From positions 37,651 through 101,650 of the forward strand of contig JBBTED010000027.1 of the NCBI GenBank assembly GCA_038042445.1: a DNA stretch of 64,000 nt. The letters are read 5' to 3'. This DNA comes from Candidatus Firestoneibacteriota bacterium (GTDB taxonomy: Bacteria > Oederibacteriota > D2-FULL-39-29 > JBBTED01). Positions within the stretch are counted from its first letter, which is position 1, and every line of letters starts with the position of its first letter. This document shows positions 3,253-57,763 of the stretch, piece by piece. A program made the position numbers and the translations under genes. A model generated the notes under the pieces. The model worked only from the letters and a program-made list of their open reading frames with translations, was not told the origin of the DNA and ran no database searches.

Positions 3253-3873
3253 CTATAATTTAAAAAGGCCTGTTTTTATTGCATAATCAGTAAGTTCTGA
3301 ACGGCCTGTCACACCTAATTTCTCCATAATTCTTGCTCTGTATGTTTCCACGGTTTTAATACTTAAATCAAGTTTTTCTGCTATTTCCTTATTTACAAAA
3401 CCTTTTGCAAGAAAGGTCAAAACTTCTTTTTCTCTTGGGCTTAATTTTTGCTCCGCTTCTTTTTCTTTTAACAATTTTGCCATACTGGAATGTATAAAAA
3501 TATTTCCCTGCGAAATTGTTCTTATAGCATTTATAAGCGCAGCATCTGCTGCTTTTTTTGGCACATATCCTTTTGCACCAATTTTAATAAACTCCTGAAA
3601 GTATTCTGGCTCCTCATGCATTGTGAGGACAAGTATTTTAATCAATTGATTCTGTTGCAAAAGTTTTTTTGCTACCTCAAGCCCATTCATATCAGGCATA
3701 GTGATATCAAGTAAAATAATATCCGGATTCAGTGTTTTACTTTTTATAAGAGCTTCTTTACCATTTGATGCTTCTCCAATTATATGTATATCCTGCTCTT
3801 TCTCAAGTAGCATCTTTAATCCTGCTCTTAAAATTGCATGGTCATCTACTATTAAAACTTTAATTTTTACCAT
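3253..3873 (-). CDS. Two-component response regulator, NarL/FixJ family (REC + LuxR-type HTH)
   Basis: MVKIKVLIVDDHAILRAGLKMLL receiver motif with the phospho-Asp region. The C-terminus reads LSPREKEVLTFLAKGFVNKEIAEKLDLSIKTVETYR, a LuxR HTH. Confidence 0.85.
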   Translation of the reverse strand: MVKIKVLIVDDHAILRAGLKMLLEKEQDIHIIGEASNGKEALIKSKTLNPDIILLDITMPDMNGLEVAKKLLQQNQLIKILVLTMHEEPEYFQEFIKIGAKGYVPKKAADAALINAIRTISQGNIFIHSSMAKLLKEKEAEQKLSPREKEVLTFLAKGFVNKEIAEKLDLSIKTVETYRARIMEKLGVTGRSELTDYAIKTGLFKL

Positions 3874-7208: not shown

Positions 7209-7264
7209 GGTAGTCGCAGGCTTTAGCCTGCGGTTCTTTCCGCAAGCTAAAGCTTGCGGCTACC
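7209..7264. repeat. Nested-palindrome repeat family B, copy 1 (ggtagtcgcaggctttagcctgcg ... ccgcaagctaaagcttgcggctacc)
   Basis: Two internally palindromic arms form an outer inverted repeat. Near-identical copies are at 21307-21373 and 33994-34064. Confidence 0.8.
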
Positions 7265-10068: not shown

Positions 10069-11908
10069 TTATTTTTTCATTATCAATTTTTTTTCCTGTA
10101 ATCCATTGCCAACTCATTGGATAGATTTCCGGGTCAAAAATTGTCCAGTAAAAATGCCAGATAATAATTGCAACAGTAGCAAGTATTGCTTCATAAAAAT
10201 GAATTAGTGTGGCTAAATCAGTAATCCATAATGGCAGATATTTTAAAGTTATATTTTCAAATAAAAGCAAAATTCCTGTTACTATCATTATAATAGAACC
10301 CCATATAAGTGCCCAATATTCAAATTTTTCCATATAATTGTACTCACGAAATTGTGGTTTTTCTTTACACAAACCAATATTATATCCAATAAATTTAAAT
10401 GCATCAGTGATATCTTTGAATACAGGAAATAATTGTGTTACTCTCTTTCTGCCTGCTTTTGTAAATACAAGATAAAAAACGTGGAATATTGCAAATAGAA
10501 TAAATATAAATGCTGTCCAGTGATGAATTTCACTCCTTATTTGTGAACCTTCCTCTAAAATTCTAAATGGATATGCCCACCAACTTTCAGGATATTTTAC
10601 TGCAAAACCAGTATAAGCAAGTACTGAAAAACAAATCAAAAGTCCAAAGTGTTGTATTCTTTCATTAATACTCATTCTTTTATCATTCGCTTCTTTTTTA
10701 CATTTTTTGTAATGTTCTCGTAAATTTTTTAAAAAATGAATTGCATTATGAAAAATCATACCACCAATTGTTAAAAGTATTAATGATATATAGAATATTT
10801 TAACATAATATATAATTAAATTTTTTTCTTTTGAATCTTTAGTATGTATAGAACCTGAAGCAAGCATTGCACCTGCACCAGGATGACATTTTCCACACGT
10901 CTTCGGTAGATTTACTTTATTTATGGAGGAAAGTTTATTATCTGACATCAAAATATCATGAAATCCATGACAAGAAGCACAATTAGCTACTCTTAAATCA
11001 CCAGCTTTACCTGATAATCCATGAAATGAATCTAAATATGTTTGAACTCTATCTGCAGGCAATCCAAATTTCGTAACAATTTTTTCAGAAGCATGACACC
11101 CTGAACAGGTTTTGGTTATTGCACCAATATATACAGATGATTCTTTGTCTTTAACAGCACGTATTGTATGTTCACCATGACAATCAATACATACTGGTGC
11201 TTCTTTAACACCTGCTTTTGAAACCACACCATGAATACTTCTTTCATATACTTTAAATACATTTTCATGACATTTACTACAAGTAACTGGAATATTCTTA
11301 TGAAATATTTTTGACATAGAGTTTGATGAACCATATATGTTGTGAGACCCATGACAATCAGTACATACTGCTGCATTCATTTCTCCATTTTTCAATGCCT
11401 GGCCATGAATACTGTTTCTATAAGATTTATATGGTTCCTTTTGTGTAAGGTGAAATTTTTCCATTTTGCCTGAATTCCCATGGCAGTGTGTACAAGTATC
11501 AGGAATGTTTTTATGATAAACCGGAGATTTTGGATTTCTGCTATTCAAAATAGTATGTGTGCTACCATGACAAGCTTTACAAGTAGCTGCTTCATTTATA
11601 CCTTTAAGCTGTGCTTTTCCATGATCACTATTTAAATAGATTTCTGATTCTATTCTATGGCAGTCTTTACAAGATACAGGTTTTAATTTTTCATTATGCG
11701 GCAATTCCTTAATATCACTATGGCAAGAAATACACAGATTATTTCCATGTATGGATTTTCCAAAAGCATTTGAATTAACCAATGGTGCGCCACTTTCTTT
11801 ATCTTTATGACACACCATACATTCTTCATTTTCCTGTGCATATAGCAACGAAGATACAAATATAAAAAAAATAAAAATCTTTGTTTTCACCCGAAAATCT
11901 CCCATTTT
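10040..11908 (-). CDS. CbcL-like fusion: periplasmic 11-heme cytochrome c plus C-terminal di-heme cytochrome b (FdnI/HydC-type) membrane domain
   Basis: 11 CxxCH motifs followed by four or more TM helices with conserved His (HFGLL..., HHWTAF..., HFYEAIL). The start is taken at the internal MGDFRVKTKIFIFFIF signal peptide (11908), because the upstream in-frame extension runs through repeat A1. Confidence 0.8.
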   Translation of the reverse strand, partial: KMGDFRVKTKIFIFFIFVSSLLYAQENEECMVCHKDKESGAPLVNSNAFGKSIHGNNLCISCHSDIKELPHNEKLKPVSCKDCHRIESEIYLNSDHGKAQLKGINEAATCKACHGSTHTILNSRNPKSPVYHKNIPDTCTHCHGNSGKMEKFHLTQKEPYKSYRNSIHGQALKNGEMNAAVCTDCHGSHNIYGSSNSMSKIFHKNIPVTCSKCHENVFKVYERSIHGVVSKAGVKEAPVCIDCHGEHTIRAVKDKESSVYIGAITKTCSGCHASEKIVTKFGLPADRVQTYLDSFHGLSGKAGDLRVANCASCHGFHDILMSDNKLSSINKVNLPKTCGKCHPGAGAMLASGSIHTKDSKEKNLIIYYVKIFYISLILLTIGGMIFHNAIHFLKNLREHYKKCKKEANDKRMSINERIQHFGLLICFSVLAYTGFAVKYPESWWAYPFRILEEGSQIRSEIHHWTAFIFILFAIFHVFYLVFTKAGRKRVTQLFPVFKDITDAFKFIGYNIGLCKEKPQFREYNYMEKFEYWALIWGSIIMIVTGILLLFENITLKYLPLWITDLATLIHFYEAILATVAIIIWHFYWTIFDPEIYPMSWQWITGKKIDNEKIINPPLKKGD

Positions 11909-11917
11909 ATTGTTTCT

Positions 11918-11973
11918 GTAGCTGCAAAGCAATAGCTTTGCTTTTTTTTTGCAGAGCTTCGCTCTGCCGCTAC
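11918..11973. repeat. Nested-palindrome repeat family A, short copy 1
   Basis: gtagctgcaaagcaatagctttgc ttttttttt gcagagcttcgctctgccgctac. Homologous cores are at 18543-18598, 23096-23151 and 30470-30525. Confidence 0.75.
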
Positions 11974-12014: not shown

Positions 12015-14759
12015 TTATTTATATGCAAATAGCATAGCATAAATAATCCATATTACCACGCTAAAACCAAGGACTAAAGCAGTCCAACCAAATATACGTA
12101 TTGCCCTTATAACAATCGGCTGATATGGTTCTACAAGATATTTTTCAAGTTCTCCACTTGCAACTAATTCTTCATATTCTTCAGGTCTGTCATTTTTTAA
12201 TTCTTCAACAGAAACACGACCTGTAAAAATACTGGTATCCATTGGAAATTTTTCCGGACGCCAGTGTGTATTAAAAAAATGCACTGTAAATATAAACCCT
12301 GCGGCAAGTAACGCCTCATCACTATGAATAATAGTTGCAACATTTATAAACCAACCTGGCAAAAACTGTGTAAAAAACTCTGAAAACCACAGAAAAACAC
12401 CTGTAAAACCAATAATAGCAATTCCCCAGAATACTGCAAAGTAATCAAATTTTTCCCAATATGTCCACCTTCCATATCTTGGCCTTTTTCCCAAACCCAA
12501 AAACCACTTTATGGATCCAATTAAATCCAGTAAATCTTTTTTTGTAGGAAGCATAGTGTTTGTTCCTGATAACAAATTTTTCCATGTTTTAAATTCTTTA
12601 CGTTTTTTTTGAAAAATATTAAAAAGATGCGTAAAGAAAATAATAAAAAGTAAAATTGCGGCAACACGATGTATATAACCTGCTGTTTCAAAACCACCGA
12701 GAAAATGCGATACAATTGATGACCATTTTGTATATGAGAATTTTAATGTCATACCTGTAAATGCCAGACTTATAAAACTCACAATCATTGTAATGTGTAA
12801 AATTCGTTCTAAACGTGAAAACCTCACAATCTGTTTTTCTGTTGAATATATATCTGCTTTTGGAAATTCCTTTTTATTTTTCATAGAACGTGAAAACCAT
12901 AAAAGCGTATGAACACCACTAAAAAAGAAAGTGGTGACAAGAAGAGTTGTCATCCCCCAAAAAACCCAGAAAAGATACGGATATTTTTTAGGGTCATGAT
13001 GTGTTGCATGTGTTAAATATCCTGCAAAACGTCTATTTGCACCTGAATGACATTTCTGACAAGTTTGGACAATATTCTTACGGCTTAAGTGCGAGTTTGA
13101 ATCAACAACAGATAAAATATCATGTGCCCCATGACAATCATAACATTTAGCTGTCTTTGTATAACCCAATTTCGAAATCTTGCCATGATATGTATCAAAA
13201 TATGTTTTGGCAATTTCCTCATGGCATTTTCCACACACATTCATAATATTAAGCTTAAAACCATCTTCTCCTGCCCGCCTAATAGTATGAGCAGTATGAC
13301 AATCCTTACACACAGGTAATTCCTTGTCTGTTTTATTATGCAATGGGGAATGAACACTCTGGACAAATTGTTCGTAGACACCATAATGACAACGCCCACA
13401 TGTTTCAGCAACCTTGTCTTTATGAATACTTGACCCAATATCACTATGTGGAAGTTCATGATGAGCTGTATGGCAATCCGAACAAGTTGCAGTAACAAGC
13501 AACCCACTTTTAAGAAGTCCCTTACCGTGAATACTCTCAGTGTAATTTTCAACAATTCTATGTTCTGTGCCAGTATATCGGATAGCTGATTTTTGTCCTG
13601 TTCTATGACACTTACCACAAAGATTTGGAACATTTAAAGGAAATATAGGTGATTTCGAATTTGTTTTTCCCATGATACCATGCGTTCCATGACATTCTTT
13701 GCAATTTGGAACATTTGGATCATTTTTAGCAAATAATTTTCCATGGATGCTATCTTTATATTCCTCAACAACTTCAGCATGACAATTTCCACAATCAACT
13801 TTTGTTTTTATACTTTCACAAGCACGATATTTAGAAGGATTCACATTTGAATGGCATTTACTGCAGGCAATTTTTGTGTGTTTAGAAGAAGTTAATTCCT
13901 GATAATTTACATAAAGAGAATGTCCATCTCTTGATGCTTTTAAATCCTGTTTTGAGTGACATTTTAGACAATCCTTATCAGCCATTCCCTCTTCATAAAA
14001 AACCTTACGCACTTTATGTGGCTGATGGCAATCTACACAAGCGGGTAAAACAGAATCCTCTTTTTCCCACAACTCACCTTTGATAATTTTTCTGTGTACA
14101 TCTTCAATTTGCGTATGGCATTTATAGCATGTTGAAGCAATATTTTTACGAGATATTGAAGAACGCAAATCAGTGTGAGGTAAAATAAAATGTGATGTAT
14201 GACACGATGTGCAAGTGGCAGTAACTGACAAACCCTTTTTTAGCAATCCTTCTCCATGAATACTCTCAGAATAATTCTCAAGAATTTTTGACTGATGAAT
14301 GTTGCGTTGACTTTGAACAGGAGCGCCTTCTTGATGACACTTTCCACAAACAAATGGCACTTTAATTGGTGATACTGCTGAGTTTTTATCCTTAACTTTT
14401 AATATATCGTGTGTTCCGTGACAATCTTGACAAAGCGGAGCCAATTTATCGCCTTTGGCAACTGCTTTTCCATGTAAGCTTTCAGAATATAATTTCTGTT
14501 GCTCTAAATGACAATTACCGCAACTAACTTTTAATGGTTTATCATGTGGAAAATCCTTCCCTTTTAGATCACTATGGCAGGAAATACATAGATTATTTTC
14601 ATGTATAGATTTTTCAAAAACATTTGAATTAACTAATGGTGCGCCACTTTCTTTATCTTTATGACACACCATACATTCTTCATTTTCCTGTGCCTGCAAA
14701 AACATTGGTACACAGCATAAAAGGAAAATTATACTTATTTTTTGTATTCGTGAGTTCAT
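12015..14759 (-). CDS. CbcL-like fusion: about 19-heme cytochrome c plus C-terminal di-heme cytochrome b membrane domain
   Basis: 19 CxxCH motifs counted. The C-terminal 300 aa is polytopic with His-containing helices. The N-terminal 45 aa are nearly identical to the downstream 11-heme paralog (AQENEECMVCHKDKESGAPLVNSN...). Confidence 0.8.
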   Translation of the reverse strand: MNSRIQKISIIFLLCCVPMFLQAQENEECMVCHKDKESGAPLVNSNVFEKSIHENNLCISCHSDLKGKDFPHDKPLKVSCGNCHLEQQKLYSESLHGKAVAKGDKLAPLCQDCHGTHDILKVKDKNSAVSPIKVPFVCGKCHQEGAPVQSQRNIHQSKILENYSESIHGEGLLKKGLSVTATCTSCHTSHFILPHTDLRSSISRKNIASTCYKCHTQIEDVHRKIIKGELWEKEDSVLPACVDCHQPHKVRKVFYEEGMADKDCLKCHSKQDLKASRDGHSLYVNYQELTSSKHTKIACSKCHSNVNPSKYRACESIKTKVDCGNCHAEVVEEYKDSIHGKLFAKNDPNVPNCKECHGTHGIMGKTNSKSPIFPLNVPNLCGKCHRTGQKSAIRYTGTEHRIVENYTESIHGKGLLKSGLLVTATCSDCHTAHHELPHSDIGSSIHKDKVAETCGRCHYGVYEQFVQSVHSPLHNKTDKELPVCKDCHTAHTIRRAGEDGFKLNIMNVCGKCHEEIAKTYFDTYHGKISKLGYTKTAKCYDCHGAHDILSVVDSNSHLSRKNIVQTCQKCHSGANRRFAGYLTHATHHDPKKYPYLFWVFWGMTTLLVTTFFFSGVHTLLWFSRSMKNKKEFPKADIYSTEKQIVRFSRLERILHITMIVSFISLAFTGMTLKFSYTKWSSIVSHFLGGFETAGYIHRVAAILLFIIFFTHLFNIFQKKRKEFKTWKNLLSGTNTMLPTKKDLLDLIGSIKWFLGLGKRPRYGRWTYWEKFDYFAVFWGIAIIGFTGVFLWFSEFFTQFLPGWFINVATIIHSDEALLAAGFIFTVHFFNTHWRPEKFPMDTSIFTGRVSVEELKNDRPEEYEELVASGELEKYLVEPYQPIVIRAIRIFGWTALVLGFSVVIWIIYAMLFAYK

Positions 14760-14809
14760 TTGATTATATTAACTATATATATCTATCATAACAGATAACA
14801 GATTTTACG

Positions 14810-14989
14810 TAGGGCAAGGCTTTACCTTGCGAATGGCAAACCTAAAGAGCCTGTGTCAAAACCCTATTTTGTCATCCTGAGGCAGTAGCCGAAGGATCTC
14901 ATTTTTAAAGGGCTTTAAAGCGAGATTCTTCGGCTACTGCCTCAGAATGACACCTTTTTTGGTACAAGTTCTAAAGGTTTGCCCTACAA
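14810..14989. repeat. Nested palindrome of about 180 bp (outer gtagggcaa...ttgccctac, inner 30-bp arms gtcatcctgaggcagtagccgaaggatctc, central tttaaagggctttaaa)
   Basis: Arms read directly from the sequence with 2 mismatches in 30 bp. It lies between the upstream kinase gene and the 19-heme gene. The motifs tgtcatcctgag and gaaggatctc recur at 18462-18490. Confidence 0.75.
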
Positions 14990-15001
14990 TGACTTTTCCT
15001 A

Positions 15002-17146
15002 TTATGTTTTATTTTTAAAAGCTAAAATATAAACATAAAAAGTTGCGCCCTTTCCTGTTTCAGATTCTACATCTATATGCCCTTCATGCCTTCTTATTAT
15101 AGAATAAACTGTTGCAAGTCCTAAACCACTACCTCTTGATTTTGTTGTCCAATAAGGATCAAATATTTTTGTTATATTCTCTTTTGCTATGCCAACTCCC
15201 TCATCTTTTATCGCTATTTTTACATATTCACCATCTTTAATTAATAAATCCCCTTTAATGTCAATATTCTCTGCATTAATCTGCACCACACCGCCTTCAG
15301 GCATAGATTCTACTGCATTTATAATTAAATTATTAATTACCTGAATCATCTGCCCTTCATCAAATTCAACTGACCATAGATTATCAGAAATTATAGTATC
15401 AAATTTTACCTTAGAATTTCTTGTCAAATATTTAACTGTATCATTTAATATTTTTGAAATTGACAAAACTTTTTTTATTGATTCTCCGCCCCTAGCAAAA
15501 CTTGATAATTGTTTCGTTAATTCTTTTGCCTGCAAAGACGCTTTTTCAGCATCAGCCAGTAATTCACCCAATTCCCCAGGATTTTGCAAATGCCTCTTCG
15601 CTAAAGAAATATTCCCTAAAATTGAAGTCAACATATTATTAAAATCATGGGCAATACCACCTGCAAAAACTCCTATTGATTCTACTTTTTGTGACTTTAC
15701 AAACTCTATTTCTATTTTTTTCTGCTGTTCTTTTATTAAAAGAACATTTTGAATGTTAGATATCGCCGCTTCAAGTGAATCTTTTAATAAATTTAACCCA
15801 TTAAGTTCATCTTTATAAAACATATCCCCAGAAAATTTATTACCTAATAAAATACAACCTTTTATTCCCCCATTTTTATTTACAGCAATCATTACCGCGT
15901 AATCCCCTGCATTCATTCCATCAAATATTTTCATTTCTGAGTCAGTAAGCACTCTTCCTATTTCTATTTTTTTCTGAAGTTCATCTCTTATTATTATTTC
16001 TTCTTTACCCTCAAAACAATTCAAAAATACACTTTGATTGCTTTTTGTCTCCTTCATTGTATAAGATTTTTTATTTGAATCTTTACATTCAAATTCTCCT
16101 TCTATTATTGCTCCTGTTTTTCCAAATATTCTGATTGAACCTTTTTCTACAAGAAAAATCTGAGGTATTTCCTTTAATAAATATTCAACAAGTTGGTTTT
16201 CATCTAATATACTTCTAATCTTTGATGTAAGCAATTGAATTGATTTAACAAAATCAATATTTTTTGCATAAAACTTTGCATTTATAAATGTACGAATTTT
16301 GCCACTAAATACTTTCAGGAATATAAAAGTAACAAATGTAATACAAGCTAAAGTTGGAAGGAAAAATGTCCTATGAAAATGAGAGGAAGGAAGTAGTATA
16401 AATACTATAATTATATTTAGTATTACCGTAGATGATAATATTGCCAAATATTCCAATATTTTTCGCAATAAATATTGCAGGTTCACCATTTTTATGCGGA
16501 TAAATGCATAAGCAATAGCTATAGTGTAAAATAAACTTGTTAAGTTCCCAAATGGATAAAATTCTATACCAAATGTAGGCAAAAAATTTGTTACTCCTCC
16601 CAATGCGCCTAAAAATGTTCCCCAGAAAATATATTTATATTGTTGTCTTTTTTGTCCTGAAGAAATCTTTATTAATTTAAAGATTAAAACTTGTGCATAG
16701 GTTATGTAAAAAGAGAAAACTACACTATATATCAAATCCCCTATATTTACCAATGGATAATATCCCCAGAAATATTTTTTTAACTCATTACTTAAAATAT
16801 TGCATTTAAAGTGTAACAATAAAAATAAAAAACTAAAAAAATAAGCAAGATAAAGCAAAGTTTTATTTAATTTGGTTTTTATGTTTGCAACATTATAAAC
16901 AAAATGAAAGGTTGTAGAAAAAATAAATATTGTTCCTGAAATTAATATATGATTATATTTAACTGCTAACAAATATTCAGAAGTATTATACAACAAAAAG
17001 AAACCTAAATTCCATACAGCCATTGATAAATTCCAGAAAATATAAGCCAGAGTAATATTTTTATTTCTATTATTAATTAATATAAGTAATATTAGAGATA
17101 TATTAAGAATAAATGCTACTAATGGCTGTATTGAATAAATTGTCAT
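15002..17146 (-). CDS. Sensor histidine kinase with a large N-terminal polytopic (7TM-type) sensor domain
   Basis: About 8 TM helices in the first 290 aa. The H-box is GGIAHDFNNMLTSILGNISLA. The HATPase motifs are NLIINAVESM, DEGVGI, GSGLGLATV. Confidence 0.8.
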   Translation of the reverse strand: MTIYSIQPLVAFILNISLILLILINNRNKNITLAYIFWNLSMAVWNLGFFLLYNTSEYLLAVKYNHILISGTIFIFSTTFHFVYNVANIKTKLNKTLLYLAYFFSFLFLLLHFKCNILSNELKKYFWGYYPLVNIGDLIYSVVFSFYITYAQVLIFKLIKISSGQKRQQYKYIFWGTFLGALGGVTNFLPTFGIEFYPFGNLTSLFYTIAIAYAFIRIKMVNLQYLLRKILEYLAILSSTVILNIIIVFILLPSSHFHRTFFLPTLACITFVTFIFLKVFSGKIRTFINAKFYAKNIDFVKSIQLLTSKIRSILDENQLVEYLLKEIPQIFLVEKGSIRIFGKTGAIIEGEFECKDSNKKSYTMKETKSNQSVFLNCFEGKEEIIIRDELQKKIEIGRVLTDSEMKIFDGMNAGDYAVMIAVNKNGGIKGCILLGNKFSGDMFYKDELNGLNLLKDSLEAAISNIQNVLLIKEQQKKIEIEFVKSQKVESIGVFAGGIAHDFNNMLTSILGNISLAKRHLQNPGELGELLADAEKASLQAKELTKQLSSFARGGESIKKVLSISKILNDTVKYLTRNSKVKFDTIISDNLWSVEFDEGQMIQVINNLIINAVESMPEGGVVQINAENIDIKGDLLIKDGEYVKIAIKDEGVGIAKENITKIFDPYWTTKSRGSGLGLATVYSIIRRHEGHIDVESETGKGATFYVYILAFKNKT

Positions 17147-18447
17147 AAGTATTTTTTTAATAATAATACTGCATTTACACCTGAAAATCCAGAGGAATTT
17201 TGCATTGCAATATTTACTTCTTTTTTTCTTGCTTTATTTGGCACATAATCCAAATCACATTCTGGGTCAGGATATTCATAATTTATAGTTGGTGGAATAA
17301 TATTATCTTCTATTATAAGACAATTTGTTATAGTCTGAAAAGCGCCTGCTGGTCCTAAAGAATGGCCTATCATTGATTTTAAACCACTTATTGGCACTTT
17401 ATATGCATATTCTCCAAATGCTTTTTTAATAGCAAGTGTTTCTGTTTTTTCATTTAATTGTGTAGAACTTCCATGTGCCTGTATATAATCAACATTTTCA
17501 GGTTTAATATTTGCATTTTTCATTGCTATTTTCATTGCTCTTGCTGATTGCACCCCATCTGGAGCAGGAGCTGTCATATGATACGCATTACAAGTAGTTC
17601 CATAACCAATAACTTCAGCATATATATGTGCATTTCTTTTTATAGCATGTTCTAATTCTTCCATAATAACTATACCTGAGCCTTCTCCCATAACAAATCC
17701 ATCTCTTTCTTTATCAAAAGGTCTTGAAGCTTTTTCCGGCTCATTATTTCTCGTAGACAATGCTTTTATTGCGCAAAATGAATACATTGTTAAAGGAGCA
17801 ATTGGAGCCTCTGTTCCACCTGCAAAAATAATATCTGCAATTCCTTGTTGTATAGATGTATATGCATTACCTATAGCTACTGTTCCTGCTGTGCATCCTG
17901 TTGATATTACATTGTTATATCCAACTATGCCTAAGTCTATTGAAATCTGGCCAACTGAAGCGCAACAAAATACTGCAATCGTAGTAAAAGTGCTTACTCC
18001 TCTTAAACCATTCAATCTATAGTTTGTAAATTGTTTCTCTGCAAAATCCATTCCGCTTACTGCAATACCAATAACTAACCCAATTCTTTCAGGATCTTCG
18101 TTTTTTATATTTAATTTTGCATCTATTAAAGCCAATTTAGCAGCACCCATAGCATATTGTGTAGATAAATCAGTTCTTCTAATTTGCTTTGGATCCATAT
18201 ATTTTTTGGGATCAAAATTATCTATTTCAGCAGCTATTTGCGAAGGATGTTGGGAAGCATCAAATCTCGTAATTTTGCGTGTCCAAGATTTACCTGCTAT
18301 TGTATTTTCCCAGAATTCCTGTTTTCCTATACCACTTGGAGCAACAACTCCAAGCCCTGTTATAACAACTCGTCTTTTATTTTCTTTAGTATCATTCATT
18401 TTATAATAAATTAAGTCGTTCTGATTCGCCTGTAACAAATTAGCCAA
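17143..18447 (-). CDS. Beta-ketoacyl-ACP synthase (KAS II / FabF-like)
   Basis: RRVVITGLGVVAPSGIG N-terminus. The active-site Cys region is CASVGQISIDLGIVGY and the His motifs are HGSSTQ and GHSLG. The true start may be the internal MNDTKENKRRVV (18399). The stop overlaps the kinase start (ATGA). Confidence 0.8.
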   Translation of the reverse strand: MANLLQANQNDLIYYKMNDTKENKRRVVITGLGVVAPSGIGKQEFWENTIAGKSWTRKITRFDASQHPSQIAAEIDNFDPKKYMDPKQIRRTDLSTQYAMGAAKLALIDAKLNIKNEDPERIGLVIGIAVSGMDFAEKQFTNYRLNGLRGVSTFTTIAVFCCASVGQISIDLGIVGYNNVISTGCTAGTVAIGNAYTSIQQGIADIIFAGGTEAPIAPLTMYSFCAIKALSTRNNEPEKASRPFDKERDGFVMGEGSGIVIMEELEHAIKRNAHIYAEVIGYGTTCNAYHMTAPAPDGVQSARAMKIAMKNANIKPENVDYIQAHGSSTQLNEKTETLAIKKAFGEYAYKVPISGLKSMIGHSLGPAGAFQTITNCLIIEDNIIPPTINYEYPDPECDLDYVPNKARKKEVNIAMQNSSGFSGVNAVLLLKKYL

Positions 18448-18454
18448 AATAAAT

Positions 18455-18650
18455 TTCGCTACGCAATAATTGTCATCCTGAGCGTTAGTGAAGGATCTCG
18501 TCTTGTAACAGATTAGCCATTCTAAAAATACACATTATTATTGTAGCTGCAGAGCAAAGCTCTGCTAAAAAACAGCAAAGCTTTCGCTTTGCGGCTACAT
18601 AAACCATACAAAATCCATTAAATCTTAGAATGGCCAACCTATTACCTCGT
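18455..18650. mobile_element. Composite MITE-like element: family A core (18543-18598) nested inside outer inverted repeats gtaacagattagccattctaa / ttagaatggccaacctattac, plus a fragment of the 14860 palindrome
   Basis: Outer TIR is 18506-18526 versus 18626-18646. The inner core is gtagctgcagagcaaagctctgc...gcaaagctttcgctttgcggctac. Near-identical composites are at 23046-23197 and 30423-30563 (the latter inverted). Confidence 0.7.
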
Positions 18651-18722
18651 CTTTATATAGATTCTTTATTTCATTCAGAGTGACAAAAAAGGTTGTTGAA
18701 AAACTTCCACTCCATTTGCATC

Positions 18723-21274: not shown

Positions 21275-21306
21275 TATTTTTAATAGTACTCAATCTATGT
21301 CATAAT

Positions 21307-21373
21307 GGTAGCCGCAGGCTTTAGCCTGCGAAAAAATTGTAAAAAATACCGCAAGCTAAAGCTTGCGACTACC
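21307..21373. repeat. Nested-palindrome repeat family B, copy 2
   Basis: ggtagccgcaggctttagcctgcg aaaaaattgtaaaaaata ccgcaagctaaagcttgcgactacc. Confidence 0.8.
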
Positions 21374-21412
21374 ACTACAGAGAAAATCGCAAAAAACGAA
21401 TTATGACACAGT

Positions 21413-23045: not shown

Positions 23046-23197
23046 CTGTTACATTTAAAGTAACATTAGCCATTCTAAGAATATACATTATTATTGTAGC
23101 TGCAGAGCAAAGCTCTGCTAAAAACCAGCAAAGCTTTCGCTTTGCGGCTACATAAACTATACAAAATCCATTAAATATTAGAATGGCTAACCTATTA
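23046..23197. mobile_element. Composite MITE-like element (family A core 23096-23151 plus outer ttagccattctaa / ttagaatggctaa TIR), copy 3
   Basis: Same architecture and over 90% identity to 18506-18646. Confidence 0.7.
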
Positions 23198-23203
23198 CCA
23201 TTT

Positions 23204-23243
23204 AAAAGACTTTGGTTCCCCGATTACTCGGGAATGACAGAAT
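23204..23243 (-). terminator. Stem-loop aaaagactttggttccccgattactcgggaatgacagaat downstream of ctpA
   Basis: Inverted repeat ttccccga/tcgggaa. A near-identical module is at 24765-24809. Confidence 0.45.
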
Positions 23244-23245
23244 TT

Positions 23246-24733
23246 TTACTTTACAACTGCTGGAGTTGATTTTTGTATTATCTCTGCACCTTTTAGCACA
23301 TCTATTGCTCGTAGGACAACAGGATCTTCAGACAAAGCAGTAACCTGCGCAGCATCGTCATTTTTCAATAAGCGAACAATTTCCATTTTAATAGAACGAC
23401 TTATAAAAGATTTACCTTTTGATGCATCATCATCACTAATAGTATATCCATTTGCCTTTGCAAAACTAATAAAATCCTGAATAATTTTTTCGCTAATTTT
23501 AATATCAACAGTAATATCTTTATGTTCTTCTATATATTTTTTTGCATAATGGATAAAATGTTCATAGTATTGTAATTTCCATACAGATTCCGGTATAAAT
23601 GGTTCATCTTCTACTAGAACATCCGGAGCTATTCCTTTTTCATGAATAAGTCTTCCACTTGGCGTATAATAATATGCAGTTGTAAGTTTTAACCCAGCTC
23701 CATTATTCATCGGATATATACTTTGCACAGAACCTTTGCCAAAAGTTTGGCTTCCTATTATTACTCCTCTTCCACTATCTTGTATTACACCTGTTACAAT
23801 TTCAGAAGCACTTGCACTACCTTTATTAACCAATACAACCAATGGCTCAGGATGAGGTGCAGCACCACTATCTGCATAATAATTTCTGTTTTGTTCTTTA
23901 ATTCTACCTTTTGTATAAACTATTAATTTACCATCACCAATAAATTTACAAGAAACATCAACTGCAGAAGAAAGTAATCCACCAGGATTACCACGTAAAT
24001 CTAAAATTAATGCTTTAACTTTTGAAGTTTCTAAATCCTTTAATGCTTTTTCCAAATCTGCACTTGTTTTCTCCATAAAACTTCGGACACGAACATATCC
24101 AATATCGCCATTTAAAACATAAGACTGAACACTTATCATTTTAATTGTTTCTCTTGTAACTATAATATCAAATGGTTCTTTAACACTTTCACGTAATATT
24201 GTTATAGTAACTTGAGTCCCTCTTGGACCTCTTAATTTTTTTACAGCCTCGTTTATTGTAATATCTTTTGTAGTTTCTCCATTTATTTTTATTATTTTAT
24301 CTCCTGATTTTACACCTGCTTTATACGCAGGAGTTCCTTCAATAGGAGATACTACAGTAAGCACATCACTTCGTATTGATATTTCTATTCCAAGTCCTTC
24401 AAAAGAACCACCTGTATCTGTTTGAAGCTCTTTATATTCCTCTGCATCCATAAACTGGCTATGTGGATCAAGTGTAGAAACCATACCCTTAATTGCTCCC
24501 TGAATTAATTTTTGCGAATCAGCTTTGTCAACATCTACATAAGATTGCTGTATTTGTGAAAGAACATCTACAAACGGAACCATATCCTGATATGTCTTTT
24601 CTATAATTTCTCTTGGTTTATCCTGACCAATTGCACCAATTGAAAATCCAACCAGAATAGCTAATATCCCTATACCACTCACTTTGTTCGGGTATAGGGC
24701 ATGCCCTATTACTTTTAATATTCTTTTATACAT
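23246..24733 (-). CDS. ctpA: Carboxyl-terminal processing protease (S41, Ctp) with PDZ domain
   Basis: The PDZ region is followed by LILDLRGNPGGLLSSAV and the catalytic Ser/Lys region of S41. N-terminal TM anchor. Confidence 0.85.
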   Translation of the reverse strand: MYKRILKVIGHALYPNKVSGIGILAILVGFSIGAIGQDKPREIIEKTYQDMVPFVDVLSQIQQSYVDVDKADSQKLIQGAIKGMVSTLDPHSQFMDAEEYKELQTDTGGSFEGLGIEISIRSDVLTVVSPIEGTPAYKAGVKSGDKIIKINGETTKDITINEAVKKLRGPRGTQVTITILRESVKEPFDIIVTRETIKMISVQSYVLNGDIGYVRVRSFMEKTSADLEKALKDLETSKVKALILDLRGNPGGLLSSAVDVSCKFIGDGKLIVYTKGRIKEQNRNYYADSGAAPHPEPLVVLVNKGSASASEIVTGVIQDSGRGVIIGSQTFGKGSVQSIYPMNNGAGLKLTTAYYYTPSGRLIHEKGIAPDVLVEDEPFIPESVWKLQYYEHFIHYAKKYIEEHKDITVDIKISEKIIQDFISFAKANGYTISDDDASKGKSFISRSIKMEIVRLLKNDDAAQVTALSEDPVVLRAIDVLKGAEIIQKSTPAVVK

Positions 24734-30371: not shown

Positions 30372-30422
30372 ATTTCATTAATTAACATATATTAAAAAAC
30401 CCAAAATGTAAAATGAAAAATA

Positions 30423-30563
30423 ATAATAGGTTAGCCATTCTAAGATTTAATGGATTTTGTATGATTTATGTAGCCGCAAAGCGAAAGCTTTGCTGTTTTT
30501 TAGCAGAGCTTTGCTCTGCAGCTACAATAATAACGTCTATTTTTAGAATGGCTAATCTGTTAC
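30423..30563. mobile_element. Composite MITE-like element, copy 4 (inverted orientation; core 30470-30525)
   Basis: aataggttagccattctaag ... gtagccgcaaagcgaaagctttgctg ttttttag cagagctttgctctgcagctac ... ttagaatggctaatctgttac. Confidence 0.7.
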
Positions 30564-30591
30564 GAAAAATATGGATAAATTTTATGCCAAT

Positions 30592-31963: not shown

Positions 31964-31992
31964 ATTATTGGGCGAGTAAACTCGCCCCTACA
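31964..31992. repeat. Repeat family D half-element (ttattgggcgagtaaactcgcccctaca)
   Basis: Single hairpin matching one arm of the 42613-42662 and 37116-37167 elements. Confidence 0.6.
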
Positions 31993-34064: not shown

Positions 34065-34349
34065 ATTATAACACAGTCTGAATAACGCAGTTCAGTGAAT
34101 TTTTACGACTCCTTTAGTTTAAAAAAAACCCCGCATTGTGCCGTGTGAAATAACAATTTGAACCTTTTGTATAAGTGGGTGCTCTCTTAGATGTTTCAGG
34201 CTTTCCCTTTCGGGACATGCACACCACATCTAAAGCTCAAGCCCCTTACAAAAAGGTGTTGGCTCAAAATTTGTCAATCCATCACAAACACAGCAGGGTC
34301 ATTTAAATTGTATCAGATTTTTTAAAAATTACAATCCCTAAAATTATTT

Positions 34350-35544
34350 TTATGCTACACTAAATTTTCTGTTTATGATAACACCTTGCTTTTTTAATTG
34401 ATTTTGCAGTTTTTCTACATTTATATCTGAAAAATTTTCGTTATTAGAAGATAATATTGCTGCTGCTGTACCTGCTGCCTCACCTGTTACTGCACAAGTT
34501 GGAATCGCTCTTGTAATATCCCATGCTGTCGTCGTAACTGAAATACATCTTCCTGCAGTTATTAAATTATCTATTTTGGCTCCTATAAGACATCTATACG
34601 GAATATAAAATATAGGACCTTCTTTTCGCCAATCTCCTGTCATTCCAATTGAATCATAAAAGAATTTTTTATTGTCTTTTTCATCAAGTTCAAAAACTCC
34701 TTGTAACCTTCGTGTCATCCTGAATTGAGGAATAGAAGGAATAAGAATAGGATAGATGTTTTTATTATTCTTTTTCAATTCCAGAATTTCTTTAAGAATT
34801 AATTTTCTGCCAGCAATATTCATTTCTGTAACATCTTCATAATTATCACCTGAAAATGTTTTCGTTGTTGCAGGAAGTTTTGTATGTATAAAGTGGATCA
34901 CCAACTACACGTAATTCAATTTTCCCATTATTATATAAAAAAAACCATCCACTTTTCCTATTAGTATTAAGTGAAACTGTTTTTTCACCTGCTTTATAAC
35001 AAACATCTGCATCACCCGAAGTATCAATAACTGTTTTACATAATACTGCATTTCTTCCACTTTTGTTTTCAACAATAAGCGCTTTTATTTTAGTGTTTTT
35101 AATTACCACATCACAAAATCGTGTATCATATAGTATTTTGATTTTGTTTTTCAAAATTTGTTCTTCCATTGTAAGTATAAAAGAAGCAGGGTTGAATTTA
35201 ACCTCATATCTGTGTTTTTTTATTCTCTTTTTATTCCCATTTTTCTGCCAGCAATCTGGAATTTTGTCATATCCATCTTTAACTGACAATTTCAATAATT
35301 CCTCACCTATTCCTGATATAACCTGATTTCCCATACCATCGCACAAAGGCAGGTAAAAAACTACAAGACCAAGTGTTGCAAGCCCACCTAATGCATTTTC
35401 TTTTTCTATTACACAAACTTTTGCATTATTTCTACTGGCTGCAAGTGCTGCTGATACACCAGCAATGCCACCGCCTACAACAACAACATCATATTCACCT
35501 ATAATATTTATTTTTTTTGATACCTCAATTAAAGTTTTTTGCAT
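34350..35544 (-). pseudogene. FAD-dependent oxidoreductase (PF12831-like) split by a frameshift into 232-aa and 184-aa ORFs
   Basis: The N-terminal part has YDVVVVGGGIAGVSAALAA (FAD-binding GxGxxG) and the C-terminal part has ITAGRCISVT...TGEAAGTAAA. The two ORFs overlap by 59 nt in different frames (34846-34904). A T8 homopolymer on the coding strand (34932-34939) lies just upstream of the overlap. Confidence 0.6.
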
Positions 35545-55929: not shown

Positions 55930-57763
55930 AAATATTTTTTGCAGATTTTAATATTTGTGGATTATCAGTAGCTATTTTTGATTCACCTGATTTAACTGTA
56001 TTAGTAGAAACACCATTTTCTTCAGTCATGGTTTCCTCCACAACTGGACTTACGCTTTCGGTCATTCGCTCAGGAGAACTCCTTTCAGTCGAACCTATAT
56101 CATTCCCTTCGGTCTCACTTCCAGTATTCCTTTCAGTCTCAGAAATATGTGTTTTTTTAACAACAAATTTTAATCTTACTTTAGTATGCATTTCATTTTC
56201 AAACACTACTTCAACTATTTTTTTATTTTCTGGTCTTTCCAAACTTCCTTTATTAAAATCATTTACAACCTCAATCATTATTGTATCATTTTCATATTTA
56301 GCAGGTTGGGCATTTATAAGAAGTGAATGTATCCGTTTATTTTCCTGCCCTATTTTTTCCAGAACAAACTGCCACATTTTTTTTATTTTTTGAATATCCA
56401 ATTTGGTGTCTTTTGAATTTGGGACCTCTTCAATTTCATTTACACTTAATATTTTTTCAGCGTTATCCTGAGTATTCACTTCCAGTATTCCTTTCAGTCT
56501 CACCTGCACGTTTTTGGTTACACCATTCCCTTTGGTCTCAGAAACTTCAACAGGAACTTTTTTCTCTGATGTTTTATTTGTACTTCCAGTATTCCTTTCA
56601 GTCATGGTTCCACCATTCTCTTTGGTTGCCGAGCCAATATACTTATCTTCACTATACCGCTCGCTTTGCTCGGGTATAGGGCTTGCCGTTTTTATAAGTC
56701 TTATAACAGCAATTTCCACTAATAACCTCTGTTGATCTGAACGTTTTAATTTTCCATCAAGATCTGACAAAATGCTTATTTTCTCCATTATATCTTGTAT
56801 TGAAAACTTATCTGCATGCTGTTTGATTGTAGGTAAAAGTGATGTTTCAATATCTACTATTTCTTCCATTTTTATTTTGCACATTAATAAATCTCGTGCA
56901 TATTGAAGCCAATCTTTTACAAATCTTGGTATATTGCAACCTTTTTTAACAAGTTCATCTACTAATTTCAAACCAGCTCTTGTATCCTGATTATACATTG
57001 CTGTATCAAATTTTATAAACTCTTCTATATCAACTATTCCTAAAGCAGATGTTACATCTTTATATTTGATTTCATTCTCTGTAAAACTTATGAGCTGGTC
57101 AAAAATACTCTGAGCATCTCTTAGTGAACCATCAACTGCTCTTGCAATATATGCCAAAGCTTCTTTTTCCACTTTGATATTCTCGCCTTTTGCAATTTGA
57201 TTTAAATTATCAATTATCTCCTGAACAGTCATTCGCTTAAAATAAAATTTTTGGCATCGCGACTGAATTGTAAGTGGAATTTTATTTGCTTCTGTTGTAG
57301 CCAGTATAAAAATAACATGAGCAGGCGGCTCTTCTAAAGTTTTAAGCAAAGCATTAAATGCCGGCTCTGTCAACATATGCACTTCATCTATTATGTATAC
57401 CTTATAAGAACATCTGGTAGGTGTAAACCGCACATTTTCCCGTAATTCTCTTATTTCATCTATTCCACGGTTAGATGCTGCATCCATTTCTATGATATCA
57501 AGTGATGCTCCTGAAGAAATTTCTTTGCATATTGAACATTCATTGCAAGGTTCAGCATTAGCACCTTTTTCACAATTAATTGCTTTTGCTAAAATTCTGG
57601 CAGTAGTAGTTTTTCCAACTCCACGTGGTCCGGCAAATAAATAGGCATGAGCTATTCTTTTGGAAATAACTGCATTTTTTAGAGTTGTAGTTATATGTTC
57701 CTGACCAACTATATCACTAAAAGATTTAGGTCTATATTTTCTGGCAAAAACTATATAGGACAT
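55907..57763 (-). CDS. dnaX: DNA polymerase III subunit gamma/tau
   Basis: YRPKSFSDIVGQEH...LFAGPRGVGKTTTARILAKAINC (Walker A plus zinc module CEKG...CNECSIC), the DEVHML box, and a low-complexity C-terminal linker with TERNTGS repeats. Confidence 0.9.
   Translation of the reverse strand: MSYIVFARKYRPKSFSDIVGQEHITTTLKNAVISKRIAHAYLFAGPRGVGKTTTARILAKAINCEKGANAEPCNECSICKEISSGASLDIIEMDAASNRGIDEIRELRENVRFTPTRCSYKVYIIDEVHMLTEPAFNALLKTLEEPPAHVIFILATTEANKIPLTIQSRCQKFYFKRMTVQEIIDNLNQIAKGENIKVEKEALAYIARAVDGSLRDAQSIFDQLISFTENEIKYKDVTSALGIVDIEEFIKFDTAMYNQDTRAGLKLVDELVKKGCNIPRFVKDWLQYARDLLMCKIKMEEIVDIETSLLPTIKQHADKFSIQDIMEKISILSDLDGKLKRSDQQRLLVEIAVIRLIKTASPIPEQSERYSEDKYIGSATKENGGTMTERNTGSTNKTSEKKVPVEVSETKGNGVTKNVQVRLKGILEVNTQDNAEKILSVNEIEEVPNSKDTKLDIQKIKKMWQFVLEKIGQENKRIHSLLINAQPAKYENDTIMIEVVNDFNKGSLERPENKKIVEVVFENEMHTKVRLKFVVKKTHISETERNTGSETEGNDIGSTERSSPERMTESVSPVVEETMTEENGVSTNTVKSGESKIATDNPQILKSAKNIFGGRIVR

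Follow-up and report, generated by a model that had tools for sequence, protein, structure and literature searches.

Nested palindromic repeats as a probable origin of a multi-level intergenic palindrome in Candidatus Firestonebacteria

The gene for a seven-transmembrane (7TM) histidine kinase and that for a 19-haem cytochrome c are separated, in a genome of Candidatus Firestonebacteria (Candidatus Firestoneibacteriota; GenBank assembly GCA_038042445.1, contig JBBTED010000027.1, positions 37,651 to 101,650, a stretch of 64,000 nt called the window throughout and used for all coordinates), by a 179-bp palindrome with several nested levels of dyad symmetry. We propose, with a probability of about three in four, that this element is a nest of non-autonomous palindromic repeats assembled by successive insertions and not a purpose-built regulatory site. 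This proposal is carried by the identities of the constituent modules, their repetition, the covariation of their stems, a direct repeat and the clean reconstruction of an ancestral repeat. In the order of events that we infer, an ordinary head-to-head dimer of about 50 bp, made of GTAG-tagged repetitive extragenic palindromes (REPs), would have been present just downstream of the kinase gene; a 123-bp element resembling a miniature inverted-repeat transposable element (MITE) would then have entered the TAAA loop of the right-hand REP, duplicating CTAAAG; and the core of this MITE would itself be a head-to-head dimer of TGTC-ATYCT-GA-(mini-hairpin)-GA-AGRAT-CTC. The three or four dyad levels would thus arise from the stacking of symmetric elements in one another's loops.

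The palindrome runs from 14809 to 14987, the boundaries given in a preliminary description of the locus being off by 1-2 bp. The three levels of symmetry recognised in that description could all be located: an outer pair, GTAGGGCAA (14809-14817) and TTGCCCTAC (14979-14987); inner arms of 39 nt (14870-14908 and 14914-14952; 87% complementary), whose 30-nt core differs at 2 positions, as had been said of 30-bp arms with two mismatches; and a centre, TTTAAAGGGCTTTAAA (14904-14919). An additional middle pair, absent from the preliminary description, lies at 14835-14861 and 14957-14983 (27 nt, 78% complementary). The element was also said to occupy nearly the entire intergenic space, which slightly overstates its share: it fills most of it (179 of 242 bases, 74%), leaving 14 nt between the kinase stop codon and the element and 49 nt between the element and the cytochrome ATG. 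Its G+C content is 44% and that of the window 31%. Folded as RNA, the 242-nt intergenic region reaches -101.3 kcal/mol, against -52.4 +/- 4.8 kcal/mol for dinucleotide shuffles, none of which did as well (0/200; z = -10.3), and the folded hairpin contains an uninterrupted duplex of 25 bp. The two strands of the 179-bp element are equally stable (-92.5 and -93.6 kcal/mol), and there is therefore no strand asymmetry hinting at an RNA-only function. A covariance-model scan brought no Rfam family at or near its gathering score for the element; over 14400-15400 at E <= 10 the only returns were models of eukaryotic microRNA precursors, generic long hairpins that scored far below threshold. A hammerhead-like reading of CUGA...GAAG was rejected on inspection, the CUGANGA core being absent and CCU pairing with AGG.

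Two GTAG-tagged REP hairpins, arranged head to head as a dimer, make up the outer layer. The left REP reads GTAG-G-GCAAGG-cttta-CCTTGC, folds alone as single-stranded DNA (ssDNA) at -6.2 kcal/mol (z = -2.9) and is built like 30 other GTAG hairpins of the window. The right REP fragment has no fold on its own because its hairpin is split by the insertion: on the plus strand GGCAAAC (14835-14841) pairs with GTTTGCC (14977-14983), after which comes CTAC, and on the minus strand the reconstructed hairpin reads GTAG-GGCAAAC-CTTTAG-GTTTGCC. Both the left REP and the reconstructed right REP carry the unpaired GTAG tag and the short stem and loop of GTAG REPs, and the high copy number, mostly extragenic placement and head-to-head doublets typical of such repeats are found across the window. 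A census of GTAG followed by 0-3 nt and a perfect or near-perfect hairpin counted 33 hairpins in the 64-kb window, against 2.9 in block shuffles; 29 of the 33 are intergenic, where intergenic DNA makes up 10.7% of the window (binomial p = 2e-24), and at least one is held by 17 of the 26 intergenic regions of at least 60 bp. Thirteen convergent pairs with tags outward form head-to-head dimers spanning 45-70 bp, for example at 7210-7263 and 21308-21372.

These properties are close to those of GTAG REPs as set out by Di Nocera et al. (2013; PMC3733652), in whose account the stems measure 5-13 bp and the loops 2-20 nt, head-to-head dimers predominate, dimers are undercounted owing to DNA inserted between the partners, some are tied to longer palindromes, and repeats flanked by co-directional genes are found no more than about 20 bp from the upstream open reading frame (ORF). 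With GTAG REPs and REPINs, including the bacterial interspersed mosaic elements (BIMEs) of E. coli, the window repeats share the unpaired GTAG, a stem of 6-7 bp, a short T-rich loop, the head-to-head dimer, the extragenic position within 20 bp of the upstream ORF and the many copies per genome fragment. They differ in their heterogeneous stems (at least 6 variants), which do not form one dominant REPIN population, in the interruption of the present dimer by another element, and in their host, Candidatus Firestonebacteria not being among the phyla that the 2013 survey discusses in its treatment of these repeats (PMC3733652).

The core of the MITE-like element, in turn, is a dimer of TGTC-tagged hairpin modules with the 31-nt arm consensus TGTC-ATYCT-GA-GGC-AGTA-GCC-GA-AGRAT-CTC. 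Each module alone folds as (((((..(((....)))..))))), with a stem of 10 positions that begins with AT and includes two G.A/A.G oppositions, hence 5 + 3 Watson-Crick pairs, and a 4-nt AGTA loop. Modules A and B differ by a single compensated base pair (ATCCT/AGGAT versus ATTCT/AGAAT), both changes compensating within their own arm and only the long inter-arm helix being disrupted. The differences between the arms preserve each arm's own hairpin; the conserved unit is the single module and not the large palindrome. The exact 22-nt GCAGTAGCC core of both arms recurs at 12 genome loci in at least six phyla, the hosts of which include Thermodesulfobacteriota, Binatia, Saccharibacteria, other Patescibacteria, Gastranaerophilales and Hymenobacter, and at 13 metagenome loci. 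At all 25 of these related loci it is either single or paired with a different module, the homodimer of the window being the only one seen. Spacers of related dimers vary in sequence and length, because of which we give TTTAAAGGGCTTTAAA no separate meaning and regard it simply as part of the dimer spacer.

The module is itself widely repeated. The generalised pattern GTCATYCTGAG-N6-14-GAAGRATCTC, which requires the CTC tail and thus leaves tail variation unsampled, matches at least 120 loci in viral contigs, where about one is expected by chance. Among the matches listed, to which the following counts refer, the commonest variable cores are CGAAGC, CGCAGC, CGGAGC and CGTAGC, all forming GC-GNA-GC mini-hairpins, and the commonest relatives accordingly have 2-bp inner stems and 3-nt GNA loops; the GC-GNA-GC motif is described in PMC13037366 as one of unusually stable DNA mini-hairpins. 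Across 137 non-redundant instances the variable core is self-complementary far oftener than its shuffles, the Y and R positions of the stem covary (T/A in 79, C/G in 56, mismatched in 2; Fisher p = 2.6e-36), and GTCAT is preceded by T in 119 and by C in 16, giving TGTC in 87% and CGTC in 12%. Where modules are adjacent, they most often converge (30 of 72 pairs), with 12-60 nt of spacer between them.

It is plausible that the TGTC module belongs to the CGTC-tagged REP superfamily. As characterised by Di Nocera et al. (2013; PMC3733652), that superfamily has a terminal CGTC tag (TGTC in many members, CCTC being a further variant), a stem of 8-9 bp whose first pairs are A-T and T-A, a loop of 4-5 nt and a short unpaired 3' tail that is mostly CCA, and it includes the dRS3/NIME units of Neisseria and RPE-4 and RPE-6 of Rickettsia; dRS3 is given as ATTCCC-N8-GGGAAT, arranged in mosaic arrays of Neisseria intergenic mosaic elements (NIMEs). 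Set beside that characterisation, the module agrees in its TGTC/CGTC tag, a stem starting with AT, a short loop, the mostly head-to-head dimers, the lack of an associated transposase and the occurrence in mosaic intergenic arrays with other repeats. It departs from it in a stem of 5 Watson-Crick pairs, tandem G.A and then a mini-hairpin of 2-3 bp, often with a GNA triloop, instead of a plain 8-9 bp; in the tail, CTC (fixed by our scan pattern) instead of CCA; and in a range (Patescibacteria, Melainabacteria, Bacteroidota, Thermodesulfobacteriota, Binatia and viral contigs) that exceeds the mostly alphaproteobacterial one reported there. A literature search by the module sequence matched no paper in the library covered. 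Shared with near base-for-base identity across distant phyla and viral contigs, the TGTC module with its tandem-G.A/GNA core is the least ordinary aspect of the locus. The identical GCAGTAGCC variant, 22-27 nt long, is present in at least six phyla, and we entertain, as an unlikely idea, that the module represents an essentially undescribed pan-bacterial, phage-borne family of mobile ssDNA hairpins that has spread between phyla by means of a novel enzyme. If so, the terminal inverted repeat (TIR) common to Firestonebacteria and Thermodesulfobacteriota/Binatia, described below, would reflect recent inter-phylum spread of a non-autonomous element, and the present locus, as a rare homodimeric and datable insertion, could help in finding the target rules of the enzyme (REP loops).

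In five viral contigs from IMG/VR (L032, L094, L039, L046 and L023) single TGTC modules mark one gene boundary after another, always pointing the same way and often against the direction of the genes, which hints at a strand-specific role or an insertion bias of monomeric modules. No recurring candidate was evident among the genes enclosed by module pairs in viral contigs.

The middle layer connects these two kinds of repeat. Excising 14848-14976 in silico yields GTAGGGCAAGGCTTTACCTTGCGAATGGCAAACCTAAAGGTTTGCCCTAC, a 50-nt head-to-head REP dimer whose layout and TTTA/TAAA loops are those of the 54-nt dimer at 7210-7263. The 123-bp insertion folds at -61.9 kcal/mol and ends in imperfect TIRs, the left and right copies matching at 11 of 15 positions; the flanking copies of CTAAAG are identical (6/6) and in direct orientation, where an inverted repeat would read CTTTAG. 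We read this layer as a MITE-like element that probably landed in the loop of the REP and duplicated that loop, the direct repeat in the right REP being a putative target-site duplication (TSD), whose length in the 123-bp element may be anything from 3 to 6 bp. The left TIR matches, at 12 of 15 positions, GAGACTGTGTCGTAA, which adjoins the TGTC module in seven other loci (L155, L145, L128, L135, L144, L149 and L153). Scans with the inner core uncovered about ten elements with GAGRCTGTGTCGYAA (again 12/15 against the left TIR of the window) directly beside TGTCAT and TTGCGACACAGTCTC closing the other side, hosted by Thermodesulfobacteriota, Binatia and peat or soil metagenomes. The middle layer resembles MITEs, and the insertions of MITEs or insertion sequences (ISs) into REP palindromes, in being short and non-coding, in having TIRs and a flanking direct repeat, and in lying in a REP loop; its peculiarity is that its core is itself a REP-type dimer. 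IS1397 and ISKpn1 insert into the loops of BIMEs. Tobes and Pareja (2006) documented REPs as hot spots of transposition by ISs. The entire 179 bp taken as one MITE was rejected, as no TSD adjoins the GTAG tags at the outer ends or lies immediately beside TGTCAT.

The same kind of nesting is seen a second time less than 4 kb away. A partly decayed TGTC dimer at 18471-18686, with the left arm TGTCATCCTGAGCGTTAGTGAAGGATCTC and a right arm ending in AGATTCTTTATTTCATTCAGAGTGACA, holds a 140-bp MITE within its spacer. This MITE is present in three copies (18505-18645, 23060-23198 and 30423-30563, the last inverted) that are 94-97% identical, each between perfect 8-bp target duplications; its TIRs start with GTAAYAG-TTAGCCATTCTAA, and a dimer of GTAG REPs forms its core. 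From its GTAA ends and 8-bp TSD we take it to resemble the IS66 family. The intergenic region between the genes for an isoprenylcysteine carboxyl methyltransferase family protein (ICMT) and a ketoacyl synthase (KAS) in which this second nest sits measures 275 bp (18448-18722), and the corresponding genes overlap in an Elusimicrobiota relative (L137). Symmetric elements entering the loops or spacers of other symmetric elements are thus recurrent in this genome, and such entry is sufficient for multi-level dyad symmetry; two independent nests so close together point to REP loops and dimer spacers as preferred landing sites. The preliminary description had stated that the palindrome shares modules with other composite repeats of the window, and the comparison of the window's repeats agrees with it.

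Table 1. Features of the nested palindrome, its flanking genes and the target duplications of the 140-bp MITE (window coordinates)
Feature	Coordinates	Strand	Detail or basis
Left GTAG REP hairpin, whole	14809-14830	+	hairpin census
Left REP, tag	14809-14812		GTAG
Left REP, stem halves	14814-14819 / 14825-14830		GCAAGG / CCTTGC; loop CTTTA
REP-to-REP spacer in the reconstructed ancestral dimer	14831-14834		GAAT; reconstruction
Right REP, 3' stem half	14835-14841	-	GTTTGCC on minus strand; pairs 7/7 with 14977-14983
Direct repeat, left copy (right-REP loop)	14842-14847		CTAAAG, core TAAA; putative target-site duplication
Left TIR	14847-14861	+	GAGCCTGTGTCAAAA
MITE-like insertion, 123 bp	14848-14970		TIRs and TGTC-module dimer core, no ORF; TIR alignment
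Module A	14870-14900	+	TGTC, ATCCT, GA, GGC, AGTA, GCC, GA, AGGAT, CTC
Dimer spacer, 21 nt	14901-14921		mini-palindrome TTTAAAGGGCTTTAAA at 14904-14919
Module B	14922-14952	-	GCAGTAGCC core as in A; stem variant ATTCT/AGAAT
Right TIR	14957-14971	-	GAACTTGTACCAAAA on minus strand
Direct repeat, right copy	14971-14976		CTAAAG
Right REP, 5' part	14977-14987	-	tag GTAG 14987-14984; stem half GGCAAAC 14983-14977
Downstream gene	12015-14759	-	19-haem cytochrome c fused to cytochrome b domain
Upstream gene	15002-17146	-	7TM histidine kinase, 714 aa
Target duplication, 140-bp MITE, copy 1	18497-18504 / 18646-18653		CTCGTCTT, perfect, 8 bp
Target duplication, 140-bp MITE, copy 2	23052-23059 / 23199-23206		CATTTAAA, perfect, 8 bp
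Target duplication, 140-bp MITE, copy 3	30415-30422 / 30564-30571		GAAAAATA, perfect, 8 bp

Independent short-read assemblies of the same population (Logan contigs L002, L003 and L004) break inside the inner palindrome, at 14915 or 14929, and at the second nest (18500 and 18561; region 18406-18561). Palindromic repeats of this kind fragment k-mer assemblies; the breaks at 14915 and 14929 are explained by the palindrome and carry no evidence on copy number.

Several other repeats of the window have features of their own. The GTAG tag of the REP dimer at 42610-42662 shares one base with the TAG stop codon of a cysteine desulfurase-like gene (41332-42612), and its 27-nt REP, GTAGGGGCGAGTTTACTCGCCCAATAA, has a 100% identical, inverted copy at 31965-31991. 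The dimer at 11918-11973, between the two cytochrome genes, has a T10 spacer, such that its first hairpin and the T-run resemble an intrinsic terminator on the antisense (plus) strand, the sense strand having A10. The dimers at 21.3 kb and 34 kb are adjoined by AGACTGTGTCATAAT-like sequences resembling the TIR GAGCCTGTGTCAAAA, as an inverted pair in the former (21287-21306 and 21394-21412) and on one side only in the latter (34066-34084). This suggests a TIR-bearing element family with REP dimers as cores; no clear TSD was found at either of the two dimers. A further family of hairpins, CCCTATACC...GGTATAGGG, recurs at 24652-24710, 56634-56692 and about 60002; the hairpins are 59 nt long, two copies being 76% identical and one copy having a GTAG head.

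No transposase was found in the window by a scan for the HUH...Y motif and two Pfam batches covering 20 small or unassigned ORFs, and all layers are therefore non-autonomous. DDE transposases move elements that have TIRs and TSDs, and GTAG REPs and REPINs are thought to be mobilised as ssDNA by the HUH enzymes termed REP-associated tyrosine transposases (RAYT, TnpA_REP), which cleave at GTAG. We posit that the layers were mobilised in trans: a RAYT-type HUH enzyme would have moved the GTAG REPs, and a DDE transposase the MITE, which is perhaps of IS5-like origin. For CGTC-type REPs, the account of Di Nocera et al. (2013; PMC3733652) gives no known transposase.

A number of points weigh against the origin by nested insertion proposed here. 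The CTAAAG repeat is short, A/T-rich, nearly palindromic and situated within a larger inverted repeat, such that chance or extension of the palindrome may explain it; the relatives of the insertion show direct repeats of 3 bp and not of 4-6 bp, and these are clear in only two of about five loci inspected (CAA in L155 and TTG in L149), being ambiguous in the others. The right TIR is degenerate, the 123-bp MITE is single-copy in the approximately 74 kb that are readable (window and extension), and the exact GTAG stem variant is likewise single-copy in the 64-kb window and its extension of about 10 kb, leaving the multiplicity of both in the genome unproven. On one side the extension consisted of about 9.5 kb of tightly packed genes free of further repeats; on the other it added nothing new. 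No autonomous IS with the ends GAGNCTGTGTC was identified, and no RAYT was found in the 74 kb or so available. Scanning viral contigs for the TIR together with the module gave no match (0), a BLAST search of plasmids gave only two marginal ones, and a literature search by the TIR sequence retrieved only unrelated primers. No true empty site emerged from comparison with relatives: the nearest ones keep the upstream synteny and differ in the downstream genes, and the closest kinase homologue is only 49% identical. Finally, the RNA-level consequences considered below are all drawn by analogy with E. coli.

The preliminary description had put forward a strong terminator and insulator, and a hairpin selected to separate the kinase operon from the cytochrome operon would accord with the great stability of the fold (-93 to -101 kcal/mol), its start 14 nt past the kinase stop codon, its position where a conserved operon gives way to another gene cluster, and the ability of E. 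coli REPs to act as partial Rho-dependent terminators. We nevertheless regard such a selected device as rather unlikely. A scan for intrinsic terminators found no site on the sense (minus) strand, on which the inner stem is followed by AAATAGGG and the outer stem by GTAAAATCTG, neither containing a U-tract; a T-run, CCTTTTTTGG after the inner stem, is present on the antisense strand only, and the hairpin with a directly following U-run that makes an intrinsic terminator is thus absent from the transcribed strand. The same types of module also lie inside operons, between the cytochrome genes (11918-11973) and between the ICMT and KAS genes (18448-18722), and are therefore not absolute insulators. 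No sigma-70-like promoter was detected in the 49 nt before the cytochrome ATG, suggesting that read-through is needed, and each layer of the palindrome is a generic repeat. What stands of the earlier claim is a partial effect, plausible by analogy; absolute insulation does not.

Local inverted duplication or template switching without any transposition, with the resemblance to other modules being secondary, would account for symmetry that runs through all layers, and the inner homodimer, with GCAGTAGCC in both arms where 25 related loci are heterodimeric or single, does suggest some copying from arm to arm. As an explanation of the whole we find it improbable: for each of the three layers there is a matching, independent family elsewhere, the compensated pair keeps each arm's own hairpin and not the long helix, the loop repeat is direct and not inverted, and the left side has one complete REP hairpin more than the right, as fits a dimer with an insertion. 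Least probable is that the palindrome serves as an operator or cruciform to which a response regulator binds to control the cytochrome operon, an idea to which the dyad symmetry upstream of the cytochrome start and the two-component genes nearby had lent some appeal. The symmetric sequences are repeat modules common to unrelated loci and phyla, every layer being found elsewhere, and arms of 30-39 nt are far longer than the half-sites of regulators. The suggested role of a cognate response regulator is weak, since the neighbouring kinase, a member of the upstream operon, is without a receiver domain or a partner regulator at this locus, and the cytochromes have a HisKA_3 kinase and a GerE-type regulator (3253-3873) of their own farther downstream.

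A repeat that originated by nested insertion might still influence the transcripts in which it lies. In E. coli, terminating ribosomes can reportedly be stalled by REPs that lie some 15 nt or less from a stop codon, and the 14 nt between the kinase stop codon and the element fall within this range. REPs of the same organism shield upstream mRNA from 3'-to-5' exonucleases and are leaky, partly Rho-dependent terminators (Harris et al. 2026 preprint). The hairpin of about 180 nt resembles these REPs of 3' untranslated regions in being stable, directly 3' of an ORF and between co-directional genes; it is far longer than a single REP and has the 25-bp perfect duplex, which would be long enough to serve as a substrate of RNase III. 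By this analogy it would block 3'-to-5' exonucleases and stabilise the kinase-operon mRNA, and a partial effect as terminator or mRNA stabiliser is plausible. With no U-run, similar repeats inside operons and no promoter in the 49 nt, we expect read-through from kinase to cytochrome genes to be attenuated and not abolished. A transcribed hairpin would plausibly determine, as a by-product, how much mRNA of the kinase operon is present relative to that of the cytochrome operon, any such effect probably being incidental.

The locus is a further example of known phenomena, namely REP dimers, MITEs and REPs that have received mobile elements. A parallel case is the nearby 140-bp MITE, which lies between perfect 8-bp TSDs in the spacer of another palindromic dimer. 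It adds Candidatus Firestonebacteria as a lineage with a dense and diverse load of REPs and MITEs, and it cautions that multi-level intergenic palindromes can come from nested selfish elements and should not be taken at sight for operators or engineered terminators.

The kinase protein is recorded from a metagenome-assembled genome of 'Candidatus Firestonebacteria' and from Hainich groundwater assemblies. Its two nearest homologues (49% and 44% identical; 844 and 854 aa) have a C-terminal receiver domain, which the window kinase lacks: the alignment with the homologues ends at residue 709 of 714, and the protein ends 5 residues further on. A tblastn search for a remnant of the receiver domain with the C-termini of P0122 and P0123 matched only an unrelated regulator at 3556-3861. 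The Elusimicrobiota relative has the same upstream order of overlapping genes (cyclase, polyketide cyclase, ICMT, ICMT, KAS and kinase), and the corresponding operon in the nearest syntenic relative contains no repeats; downstream of the kinase gene, the Elusimicrobiota relative has genes for FKBP and FxsA and no cytochromes. The kinase gene thus closes a conserved lipid operon upstream of the palindrome; the kinase is no partner of the cytochromes, nor an obvious regulator of them. The palindrome marks a breakpoint of synteny, due to rearrangement or acquisition, at the 3' end of the truncated kinase gene.

The cytochrome was correctly described at the outset as having 19 haems, 19 CXXCH motifs being present, and its homologues are 60-67% identical and distributed across many phyla. 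The 5' coding regions of the adjacent multihaem cytochrome genes resemble each other (11709-11887 and 14563-14741; 83% over 179 nt, 94% over 126 nt), which suggests duplication or gene conversion of the region coding for the signal peptide and first haem. Elsewhere in the window, two overlapping minus-strand ORFs (34350-34904 and 34846-35544) match the C- and N-terminal parts of one FAD_oxidored (PF12831) protein and likely reflect a frameshift, a pseudogene or an assembly error. At about 58.4-59.2 kb (L139 14289-14993) an NTP_transf_2 nucleotidyltransferase gene is followed by a HEPN gene split into ORFs of 62 and 63 aa, which together may be a disrupted toxin-antitoxin pair.

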